The notes below the pieces were generated by a model, which saw only the letters and a program-made list of their open reading frames with translations, was not told the origin of the DNA and did no database searches. DNA of 10,946 nt, from assembly GCA_963753345.1 (NCBI GenBank), contig CAVWBU010000017.1, positions 1 through 10,946 on the forward strand, given 5' to 3'. Source of the DNA: an uncultured Fibrobacterota bacterium. Its GTDB lineage: Bacteria > Fibrobacterota > Chitinivibrionia > Chitinivibrionales > FEN-1185. Both the position numbers and the translations under genes were made by a program. The first letter of the stretch is position 1; each line of letters starts with the position of its first letter. Below, in pieces: positions 4,339 to 6,156 of this stretch.

Positions 4339-4426
4339 GGATATTCGACCCACACAGATTTGACAAAGCTCGCAAACCACTTCGCCGCAAACACAATAAC
4401 CGTAAAACCAAACCATGGAGCACCCG

Positions 4427-4789
4427 ATGCCATCCGAACTCGATGTCCTCATAGAAGAATCCCTTCGCCTCCGTCAGGAAGTCCAGCGCATGCAGGAGCA
4501 GTACGACGGAAAGCGCGGCCGCATCCTGGAACTCATGACCGCGGACAACCGGCGGGAATACCGATACGGGCAATGCAAGGCGGTGCGTACCGAGGCGATT
4601 ATCCTGGAAAGCGTTTCAAAGGAATTGTTTGTCAAGGCGCTTCAGGAAGTGGATATTCCGAGGGAGAAGAAGGTGTTTATTTGGAATAAATCAATAAAAG
4701 AAATTAAAAGGCCGGAGATGGTGATATTGAGGACCGCAGGGGGAAAGGGGAGGAAGGAAGAGGACGTGACGGTGATTGATGGGGAGTGA
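4427..4789 (+). CDS. Hypothetical protein, 120 aa, with an N-terminal coiled-coil-like helix
   Basis: GGAG at 4417-4420 precedes ATG 4427. Protein-like composition (ELDVLIEESLRLRQEVQRMQEQY...). No family confidently recognised. Confidence 0.7.
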   Translation: MPSELDVLIEESLRLRQEVQRMQEQYDGKRGRILELMTADNRREYRYGQCKAVRTEAIILESVSKELFVKALQEVDIPREKKVFIWNKSIKEIKRPEMVILRTAGGKGRKEEDVTVIDGE

Positions 4790-4833
4790 ATTTTAATGGT
4801 TGGATAAGGTGGTTAATCACGAAATAATTCCCG

Positions 4834-5070
4834 CTATTTGCTGATAAGGATCTTTTCAAACGAAGAATAGGTCTTGTAGTCACACTGGATTACATACTCG
4901 CCTGCGGGCAACATACTTGTGATGTTGTTGTTGCCTTTTGTCAATTTTCCAGACAAAAGGGATTTGCCGTTTATGGCAAACACCCCAAAAAGGCCGTTAT
5001 CTGGGGATTGGATGATAAGCCGCGAGCCTTTGGCGATGGTCCTGCTAAGGACTTGGGGGACAATCAGAGT
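4834..5070 (-). CDS. -1 frame extension of the FG-GAP gene: putative T9SS type A-like C-terminal sorting domain (78 aa)
   Basis: Manual translation: TLIVPQVLSRTIAKGSRLIIQSPDNGLFGVFAINGKSLLSGKLTKGNNNITSMLPAGEYVIQCDYKTYSSFEKILISK*, with TAG at 4834-4836. It matches the CTD pattern (F/Y)xxxG(K/R)...LxxGxY(V/I)...KxxxxK. There is no canonical start near its 5' end, and the frame is closed upstream by TAA at 5077-5079. Confidence 0.75.
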   Translation of the reverse strand, partial: TLIVPQVLSRTIAKGSRLIIQSPDNGLFGVFAINGKSLLSGKLTKGNNNITSMLPAGEYVIQCDYKTYSSFEKILISK

Positions 5071-5441
5071 TTTTTTTTAGTAAGGACCGGGGTGTATGAG
5101 TATACTTTGTAGTTGATGACAAGTTCCTTTTTCCCGTCGCCATTGAAATCGCCGACAGCTTGGACTGCGCCCCCATTACTAACTTCCAGGAGAATTGTTT
5201 CCTTCTTTACTGAGTAGACACACATCTTTTCAATAGTAGTTGTTCCGTCAAAATATAATGTCTCATATGCAATGTCATCAGATCCATCCCCATCAAAATC
5301 GCCAACGTTTTGAGGGGGGGCGCCACTGACCAAACATCCTGGACAATCCACTGGAATTGGCAGGCTGGTTTGCGCAAAGCAAACAACGGCAAAAACCAGA
5401 ACAACCCCACATCCGATCATGCCGCCAATTCTGTTGACCAT
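5064..5441 (-). CDS. Secreted FG-GAP/VCBS-like repeat protein (short, frame-0 form, 125 aa)
   Basis: AGGAGG at 5447-5452 precedes ATG 5441. Signal peptide ...LVFAVVCFA|Q, two Ca-binding-type repeats VGDFDGDGSDD and VGDFNGDGKKE, and a CPGC motif. Ends ACT AAA AAA AAA CTC TGA. Confidence 0.85.
   Translation of the reverse strand: MVNRIGGMIGCGVVLVFAVVCFAQTSLPIPVDCPGCLVSGAPPQNVGDFDGDGSDDIAYETLYFDGTTTIEKMCVYSVKKETILLEVSNGGAVQAVGDFNGDGKKELVINYKVYSYTPVLTKKKL
5070..5078 (-). other. A9 homopolymer: candidate transcriptional-slippage, -1 frameshift or phase-variation site
   Basis: T9 on the + strand at 5070-5078. One extra A, or a -1 shift, joins the FG-GAP ORF to the CTD-like ORF. Confidence 0.65.
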
Positions 5442-5511
5442 AGTTGCCTCCTGCGTCAGTAAGCAGATTCATTCAAATGCTGTTCGTTGTCAAAAAGCCT
5501 GTTCACTGATG

Positions 5512-5540
5512 ATTATATCCTTTATACTCTTTGCAGGCAA
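5512..5540 (-). promoter_or_regulatory. Putative sigma70 promoter of the FG-GAP gene
   Basis: TTGCCT (5540-5535), a 17-nt spacer, then TATAAT (5517-5512), about 70 nt upstream of ATG 5441. Confidence 0.6.
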
Positions 5541-5565
5541 GAACAAAAGCAATTTCTTCCCAGAC

Positions 5566-5587
5566 TGTCAACTCTCAACTCTTTCTC
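5566..5587. repeat. Heptamer repeat copy A (TGTCAAC TCTCAAC TCTTTCTC)
   Basis: Seen directly, just downstream of the flavodoxin stop. Shares its TCAACTCTTTCTC tail with copy C. Confidence 0.6.
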
Positions 5588-5613
5588 CGCCACTGGGAAA
5601 AATAGATTATTGA

Positions 5614-6156
5614 TTATTCAGCCACCTTCCTCACAAAATTCTCAAACCTCTCCCTAATTTCCCCCTTAAAATTCTCCTCCGCCAACCTCGTCTTCATCAT
5701 CGCATTCCCGTCCGCCCTTTTGTCCTCCGCTAGAACCAGCCCTATCGGGAAAGCTTCACAGCGAATGCATTTGTTCCCAAGCATGTCTCTAATCTTGTCA
5801 AAGACGAGGTCATGTCCGAACTTTTGACGTTTAGCGGCGTCGGTGCTCCCGCAGCACGTGGCAAAATACAGCCTCTTGACGTCCTTATGGTATTTGCGGA
5901 TAAAGTCATACAATGGTGAAATAACCTGGCCCATCCAGATGGGACTGCATACGATTATCCGATCATATTCACCCACTTTGTGGCTGAGGGCTTTGATTCC
6001 AAGACTTGTTTTAGTCAATGAGAAGAGGATCAAGAAGGGAAAAAGGCTCAATCTTGGCTTGATCGCTTCAATGTCGCAATTCAATTCCTTGGCAACCTTT
6101 TCGGCAAGATACTTGTTGTTGCCGCTATTTGAATAATAAGCAACTAAGGTTTTCAT
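5614..6156 (-). CDS. Flavodoxin-family protein
   Basis: MKTLVAYYSNSGNNKYLAEKVA (FMN phosphate loop), YDRIIVCSPIWMG and FATCCGS. AAGGAG lies 7 nt before ATG 6156; GTG 6159 is an alternative start. Confidence 0.85.
   Translation of the reverse strand: MKTLVAYYSNSGNNKYLAEKVAKELNCDIEAIKPRLSLFPFLILFSLTKTSLGIKALSHKVGEYDRIIVCSPIWMGQVISPLYDFIRKYHKDVKRLYFATCCGSTDAAKRQKFGHDLVFDKIRDMLGNKCIRCEAFPIGLVLAEDKRADGNAMMKTRLAEENFKGEIRERFENFVRKVAE

Follow-up and report, generated by a model that had tools for sequence, protein, structure and literature searches.

Why does a gene for a small secreted FG-GAP protein stop two codons past an unbroken run of nine adenines, while an adjacent frame stays open beyond the run and resembles an export signal? 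The question is raised by a stretch of 10,946 nucleotides (contig CAVWBU010000017.1 of assembly GCA_963753345.1; "the window" hereafter means this whole stretch) from an uncultured Fibrobacterota bacterium of the order Chitinivibrionales. The window is the whole of the 10.9-kb contig C17 in a metagenome-assembled genome (MAG) of 55 contigs, 4.5 Mb and 56% GC. An initial annotation, made from the letters of the sequence, proposed that the run (A9) appends a hidden sorting domain of the type IX secretion system (T9SS), here called the C-terminal domain (CTD), to the FG-GAP protein through slippage, frameshifting or phase variation. Following up this proposal, we hypothesize that the gene undergoes programmed slippage, most likely by RNA polymerase, and would give a major CTD-less periplasmic form together with a minor CTD-bearing exported form. 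Resting on sequence comparison, this reading receives from us a probability of roughly 0.6.

Two frames meeting at an A9 run

On the minus strand, the zero-frame open reading frame (ORF; 5441..5064) encodes 125 amino acids (aa) comprising a signal peptide and two FG-GAP-type repeats, the latter recognized with Pfam and AlphaFold2 (AF2). Its tail, ...YSYTPVLTKKKL, ends in ...TKKKL, and a TGA stop follows at 5066–5064. The junction reads CTT ACT AAA AAA AAA CTC TGA on this strand, the three AAA lysine codons forming the A9 run at 5070–5078, which is the proposed slip site. In the −1 frame, a TAA at 5079–5077 overlaps the head of the run. Past this TAA the frame is open for 80 codons, KK and 78 more, until a TAG at 4836–4834 (4834..5076 with the stop), and no start codon is found at its 5′ end. 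One additional A in the run would give a fused product of 124 + 78 = 202 aa; in terms of run length, either A10 or A7 would join both frames. The closed and then open −1 frame, the missing start and the 125-aa versus 202-aa products all stand as initially annotated, except that the 78 open codons given there hold when counting from the T after KK, the full open stretch being 80.

Long frames of this genome served to train a codon-usage score, which favors different frames on the two sides of the junction. Upstream of the run the zero frame scores best (0.21 versus −0.28 and −0.75), and downstream the −1 frame does (0.36, with no stops, versus −0.72 and −0.60 for frames with 3–4 stops).

Type A CTDs (TIGR04183/PF18962) adopt a seven-stranded immunoglobulin (Ig)-like sandwich fold. 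TIGR04183 is matched at E ≤ 1 by all five CTD frames of the family (best E 1.1e-8), namely that of the window and those of four other genomes with 27–38% identity to it. Against PF18962 the window frame reaches E 0.086 and 13.6 bits, the cut-off being 27. An AF2 model of the CTD, covering 79 aa up to the stop and built on the five-sequence alignment, is a β-sandwich of 8 strands without helix (predicted local distance difference test score, pLDDT, 85.2; predicted TM-score, pTM, 0.72). Compared with the PDB in Foldseek, the model retrieves Ig-like sandwiches, and all six matches at E ≤ 0.001 are chains of E. coli MalQ. The predicted fold is thereby consistent with a T9SS CTD, yet unspecific. 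In the family alignment, the Gly that follows strand 3 and a C-terminus of the form K-I-x-I-x-K are also retained, the same two motifs that the available part of PMC11285876 calls functionally relevant. The assignment is stronger because four orthologous frames were added to a weak single-sequence match, and the data support the conclusion, already drawn in the initial annotation, that the −1 frame encodes a T9SS type A CTD.

Relatives and the protein family

The search for homologues covered 81 genomes of the order, which equals the whole class. The gene is patchily distributed, with homologues in 8 of the 81 genomes counting that of the window (G000). Five of the eight, from three families, share the window architecture: G000 and G003 (f1), G008 (f2), and G070 and G056 (f5). 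At all five loci a signal peptide is encoded, and the CTD frame stays open for 79–80 codons; a pure run, A9 in four genomes and A10 in one, lies at the homologous place, and the intact CTD is always in another frame. The junctions read ACT A9 CTC TGA in G000, GAT A9 CTC CAC TAA in G008, AGT A9 GTC CGA TAA in G070 and AGT A10 GC CCC TGA in G056, and in each of these the two frames are joined by one A more. G003, which belongs to the same genus as G000, has ACA AAA AAA AAC, an A9 with only two lysine codons. Its zero frame continues 12 codons further, its CTD is in the +1 frame, and joining takes one A fewer.

These loci bear directly on a trivial explanation, which the initial annotation regarded as the main alternative: a homopolymer miscounted during sequencing or assembly, or a frameshift mutation that arose recently, in the G000 MAG, the true gene being in frame. 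Such an explanation draws on the origin of the window as a 10.9-kb contig of a 55-contig MAG with other frame breaks and giant A/T runs. However, the same break is present in the assemblies of four other species and in dozens of metagenome proteins, and the correction needed in G003 has the opposite sign. In addition, other A9/A10 runs of the G000 assembly keep frame: five lie inside frames open for >150 codons on each side (C2:2357, C16:163013, C21:148554, C24:43903 and C26:144120), so runs of this kind are in general counted correctly in the assembly. Because the out-of-frame arrangement is conserved in relatives, we consider an error or recent mutation very unlikely. The assembly is nevertheless imperfect, so the argument rests on the relatives and not on the window contig.

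A distant member, G022 (L026, 1483–2091), encodes an in-frame 202-aa fusion of FG-GAP part and CTD. Its junction, ..TLPKKSKYKRVIIPKK.., contains an interrupted A7 only, and in hhalign residues 124–201 of the fusion are matched to the CTD profile at 97.9% (E 6.4e-13). Because G022 is an in-frame fusion, the FG-GAP part and the CTD can be regarded as one protein; the fusion is likely the ancestral or an alternative state. The prospect raised in the initial annotation that all homologues might be in-frame fusions without the A run did not materialize, as G022 alone is in frame among the eight homologue genomes.

The existence of this ancestor-like form also invites the view that only the short CTD-less protein is functional and that the CTD frame is an untranslated relic of an in-frame ancestor. 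It would agree with the finding that all database proteins are of the short form, and with the decayed look of the downstream frame in another homologue, G020. Yet a relic would not be expected to stay ~80 codons open and CTD-like in five species at only 27–38% identity, nor would it hold the best coding score or a disfavoured pure-A run, and we find this scenario hard to credit. As for the run itself, the 4.5-Mb genome has 44 runs of 9–11 A/T, and in-frame KKK in the long open frames of G000 is written as pure A9 in 5 of 194 cases, versus 6.8% expected from lysine codon usage, the giant poly-A/T stretches being excluded from the count. Because pure A9 is disfavoured for KKK in G000, the pure-A runs of the family are not a by-product of codon usage. 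A genome-wide scan of G000 for runs of at least nine A's at frame switches returned the window site as the only clear case; A8 frame-switch candidates, which look like ordinary gene boundaries, were set aside.

At the protein level, the first search retrieved one relative, P0002, with 64% identity and the same ...TLTKKKL end. A profile search of 1.84 billion representatives yielded, among the best 150 matches, 15 small single-domain proteins of 116–163 aa, with 135 large FG-GAP proteins of many repeats making up the rest. Searching a set of 5.8 billion proteins gave 160 matches at E ≤ 1e-5; among 120 of these, 29 further members were found at E ≤ 6.9e-15, along with two weaker ones. Matches P0183–P0261 except P0188 and P0222 (161–286 aa, ~50% query cover) were set aside because their Pfam lists and coverage mark them as generic FG-GAP proteins. 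KKK followed by 0–3 residues constitutes the C-terminus in 43 of 48 family proteins (80–170 aa). The five exceptions are the G003 protein, whose A9 is seen in the DNA, a protein with KKK plus 7 residues, a chimera with a DUF559 tail, a protein with a stop before the domain end and one ending in ..GVVKN. The names of two members in their source records place the family in Fibrobacterota (Chitinispirillaceae). Conservation of an out-of-frame poly-A before the CTD, suggested as a check in the initial annotation, is thus seen at 5/5 A-run loci and is matched by the 43 proteins that end just after KKK.

The same collection is informative about a possible switch at the DNA level, in which replication slippage would alter the run length of a phase-variable (contingency) locus and the assemblies would show its OFF state. 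A coding homopolymer of 9–10 nt in the gene of a surface or secreted protein is the classic substrate of phase variation, run length does differ among species (A9 four times, A10 once), and the available part of PMC1088944 describes runs of this kind as hypermutable. The ON state, however, is not seen: none of the five A-run loci is in frame, and none of the 48 family proteins has an in-frame CTD, fused lengths being within the search range. No CTD is carried by any of the family-level matches (E < 1e-14) among those listed, with lengths of 63–286 aa within the search. The CTD profile compared with longer proteins gave three matches, all to unrelated proteins of 1095–1251 aa, and no 200-aa fusion, which is weak evidence. 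If one length in three corresponded to ON, an all-OFF outcome across ~45 independent clusters would be extremely unlikely, and in three families the run hardly departs from a length of 9. We therefore hold a contingency locus to be improbable.

The wider searches add no member. In the phylum (296 genomes) there are 11 matches, the three outside the order being generic FG-GAP proteins in frames of 708–772 aa and no family member. A match in G050 (377-aa frame) was dropped as generic FG-GAP and is gone at E ≤ 1e-5. A tblastn search of G000 for paralogues with both gene parts returned self only. Pattern scans of metagenome and genome contigs matched 166 and 214 stretches, with no relative among them. 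Further contig scans produced 35 and 25 loci, all rejected as they look like generic FG-GAP; none of these 60 has an uninterrupted run of nine or more A's, and A8 occurs in five of them, never adjoining the match.

Proposed slippage, predicted destinations and genomic setting

Standard decoding would produce the 125-aa precursor, composed of the signal peptide, a ~100-aa two-repeat FG-GAP calcium-loop domain and the KKKL tail. This short form would cross the inner membrane via Sec and, having no CTD, remain periplasmic. A minor share of expression events would add one A to the A9 or remove two, most likely through realignment of the RNA on the T9 template by RNA polymerase. The resulting 202-aa form, carrying a ~78-aa type A CTD, would be recognised by SprA and PorU, exported over the outer membrane, with processing by PorU; how often slipping occurs would set the exported fraction. 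We infer that slippage occurs, and likewise which machine is responsible, in what proportion the two forms arise and where each of them goes.

The homopolymer can be regarded as a selected element because it is at least 9 nt long at 5/5 loci, A9 is kept in G003 despite the other register, and no conserved flanking structure is present. The register of G003 and the opposite shift that it needs suggest that a run of 9 nt or more is what selection maintains, rather than the lysines or a −1 heptamer. RNA folds of the 80 nt downstream at the five loci gave z = 0.22, −2.96, 0.00, 0.65 and −0.02, and those of the 60 nt upstream z = 0.65, −0.93, −2.09, 0.74 and 0.52, one of five being below −2 on each side. 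The absence of a conserved flanking RNA structure fits plain homopolymer slippage.

The same protein could also arise through a −1 ribosomal slip on A_AAA_AAA, and the long form may be mainly of ribosomal origin, made by programmed −1 frameshifting on this heptamer or by poly-A ribosome sliding while transcripts are faithful A9 copies. The window, G008, G070 and G056 each have a zero-frame A_AAA_AAA, the CTD in the −1 frame and a zero-frame stop within two codons; G020 carries A_AAA_AAC; and the homologue in G042, which has the CTD in the −1 frame once more and an A_AAC_CCG heptamer instead of an A run, hints that some lineages use the ribosome. According to the available part of PMC1088944, E. 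coli dnaX reaches by ribosomal frameshifting the same end for which Thermus uses slippage. However, a −1 slip cannot provide the +1 (or −2) shift required in G003. A heptamer would be enough for −1 frameshifting, yet at least nine A's are present at 5/5 loci. Moreover, a conserved downstream hairpin was not found (z −2.96 in one of five loci, the others between 0.65 and −0.02), and no Shine–Dalgarno-like stimulator is seen 5′ of the run in the window. We consider a mainly ribosomal mechanism unlikely.

Several observations weigh against the favored reading. Taken alone, the window CTD matches TIGR04183 with E 4.7e-4 and 20.1 bits, which is under the cut-off of 23, and in the Foldseek search a T9SS cargo CTD (8glk_D, E 6e-3, TMq 0.57) appears at rank 14 with generic Ig-like matches ahead. 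G042 (L025, 1477–2060) has an intact CTD in the −1 frame (TIGR04183 32.4 bits, over the cut-off) and lacks an A run. Together with the base before them, the final two codons of its zero frame form A_AAC_CCG, an X_XXY_YYZ pattern right before TAG, which may be a ribosomal frameshift site in place of A9 or a plain frameshift mutation. In G020 (L021, ~1119–1620) the junction, CAA AAA AAC CGT TGA, has A7 only, and the −1 frame starts with AKKPLIK like its relatives and continues into a remainder that is not CTD-like; the MAG is fragmented, and the copy may have decayed. The A run was read in DNA at 5 loci, and for the other ~43 proteins it is deduced from the KKK-stop. Finally, G000 contains other frame breaks, in two CTD genes and a SprA-like gene, none with a homopolymer, and given these an error in the G000 contig taken alone is possible.

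The presence of T9SS genes in the host genome was put forward for checking in the initial annotation, and G000 proves rich in them. SprA (404.6 bits, cut-off 200) and the PorU sortase (494.4 bits, cut-off 420) are matched over their cut-offs, whereas a PorV-like protein, with 110 bits, is below its cut-off of 250. The GldM model has no match in G000 and is equally silent in every control genome. TIGR04183 matches number 147 at E ≤ 0.01, and the CTD is in frame in >140 other CTD genes of G000. Judged by these profile matches, G000 has T9SS translocon and sortase genes.

Two other CTDs of G000 are off-frame from their cargo, at C26:76186–76368 (a BNR-like repeat protein) and C19:115988–116143 (a pectate-lyase-like β-helix). 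Both breaks were set apart from the A9 phenomenon, as no homopolymer is found at the break. The SprA-like gene (C31:31635–38067) matches its model in two frames (frame 2 open over 31635–34115, frame 0 over 33118–38067), and no homopolymer of at least 6 is present between the two matches; the split may reflect a frameshift, an indel of the assembly or the presence of two genes. The assembly also contains giant T/A homopolymers of up to 2132 nt (C16:165548–167729, C16:173562–174277, C18:146537–148150, C32:67142–67252 and C45:3240–3287), which are probably assembly or data artefacts.

The N-terminal part belongs to the FG-GAP proteins by its matches to PF01839 (31.5 bits, cut-off 22.1) and FG-GAP_3 PF13517 (27.8 bits, cut-off 26.9). 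A first DxDxDGxxD calcium-loop motif is located at aa 48–56 (5274..5300, minus strand), with D48, D50, G51 and D52 invariant (n = 18 sequences). A second one, DxNxDGxxE, spans aa 98–106 (5124..5150, minus strand) within the best Pfam FG-GAP stretch, residues 95–111, and its E106 is invariant. The AF2 model of this domain (pLDDT 82.1) comprises about two FG-GAP propeller blades and a disordered KKKL tail. A fold search with the model gave integrin alpha and PL11 propeller blades as the nearest structures and no match at E ≤ 0.001.

The N domain having only about two propeller blades, untagged and tagged forms may co-assemble, and we speculate that oligomers could mix both. A complex prediction for three copies of the N domain scored 0.09 (mark 0.42), which speaks neither for nor against binding. 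A much broader hypothesis can be built on this idea. The family would be an obligate two-isoform system in which the slip rate of a fixed A9 sets the T9SS-tagged share of a periplasmic mini-propeller; the untagged majority would co-assemble with the tagged minority and be exported piggy-back, as a one-CTD complex; and A9 gating of sorting signals would be a level of T9SS regulation that is general and has been overlooked in bacteria of the Fibrobacterota–Chlorobiota–Bacteroidota (FCB) group. We regard this extension as doubtful.

The Sec-type signal peptide (M1–A23, 5373..5441, minus strand) was predicted by reading of the sequence, ..CFA/QT, with Gln at position +1 of the mature protein. A hydrophobic stretch followed by ..FAQT/FSQT is kept in 18 family members, Gln24 (5370–5372) is nearly invariant, and a conserved IPxP comes after it in the family alignment. 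Gln24 is reminiscent of a habit of Bacteroidota secreted proteins, an N-terminal Gln/pyroglutamate. About 70 nt 5′ of the ATG, a candidate sigma-70-like promoter, TTGCCT-17 nt-TATAAT, is found on the minus strand (5512..5540; 10/12 consensus positions); it is a consensus match only, the region holding 5 such sites versus 2.0 expected. For a terminator, one weak match inside the CTD frame, versus 1.5 expected by chance, was disregarded.

Neighbouring genes of the window are of housekeeping type: dnaE, an acyltransferase gene, a flavodoxin-like gene, an Fe-S protein gene and genes for a PfkB kinase and a hydrolase. A 124-aa plus-strand ORF (4415–4789), which has no Pfam match, converges on the CTD end. 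Ten public sequencing runs, each with a small share (at most 0.17) and none of RNA, were identified for the window; contigs from four of them aligned to 4600–4900 and 5529–5700, none spanning 4933–5524 with the junction. Contigs of relatives from soil and peat runs match window positions 4601–4789 and 5633–5700 at ~90% and diverge at 4789 and 5633. Judging from these alignments, the FG-GAP/CTD gene appears to be absent or replaced between conserved neighbours in those relatives.

Meaning and known systems

If polymerase slippage at the A9 is correct, a single gene would yield one periplasmic form and one exported form, their ratio being determined by the infidelity of the polymerase (or of the ribosome), and would do so family-wide in uncultured Fibrobacterota. 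It would also mean that annotation errs systematically, with each of the 48 database entries truncated and the CTD frame called nowhere; current pipelines would label such genes as short hypothetical proteins. Furthermore, being small and simple to mutate, the locus would lend itself to testing what amount of CTD-tagged protein the T9SS needs.

Homopolymer slippage is a known route to two proteins from one gene. The precedents named in the initial annotation, Thermus thermophilus dnaX and Shigella mxiE, are borne out by the available part of PMC1088944, in which dnaX uses A9 and mxiE a run of Us, and nine A's or T's are given as the length where slippage becomes evident in many bacteria. For Citrobacter rodentium tssM1, the portion of PMC4256274 at hand describes an A11 with two length variants and ~20–25% slippage.

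The Shigella flexneri genes, mxiE and also spa13, mxiA and spa33, resemble the present case in having a homopolymer at the overlap of two frames and a non-templated base in part of the mRNAs, which leads to a longer protein of a secretion pathway (available parts of PMC1088944 and PMC4256274). They differ in encoding a regulator and parts of the type III machine, whereas here the sorting domain of a predicted cargo protein would be affected. The type VI secretion (T6SS) gene tssM1 likewise has a poly-A a few bases before a premature stop, short and full-length forms that both matter, and a ratio that matters (PMC4256274, in part). Unlike the gene of the window, it encodes a structural membrane protein of the machine and, in that portion of the source, involves two species only; here a whole family (48 members seen) is concerned, and the added part would be an export signal. 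Thermus dnaX (tau/gamma) shares exactly nine sense-strand A's and two products with a common N-terminus, as described in the available part of PMC1088944. There, however, the long form is templated and slippage gives rise to the shorter one, whereas in the present case it is the short form that is templated. The heptamer of G042, if it is a ribosomal site, would parallel the choice between slippage in Thermus dnaX and frameshifting in that of E. coli.

Ordinary T9SS type A cargo has the same N-terminal signal peptide, ~78-aa C-terminal β-sandwich, Gly after strand 3 and basic/hydrophobic C-terminus, as far as the available part of PMC11285876 describes it. Its CTD is in frame, whereas here the CTD is reachable only by a change of frame. 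Full-text literature searches returned no relevant report of T9SS joined to transcriptional slippage, frameshifting, recoding or homopolymeric phase variation, in agreement with the statement of the initial annotation that it knew of no recoding that gates T9SS sorting. On these comparisons, what appears to be new is the combination: a putative recoding site placed exactly at the boundary of cargo and CTD, and kept in a family whose close members are never encoded in frame.

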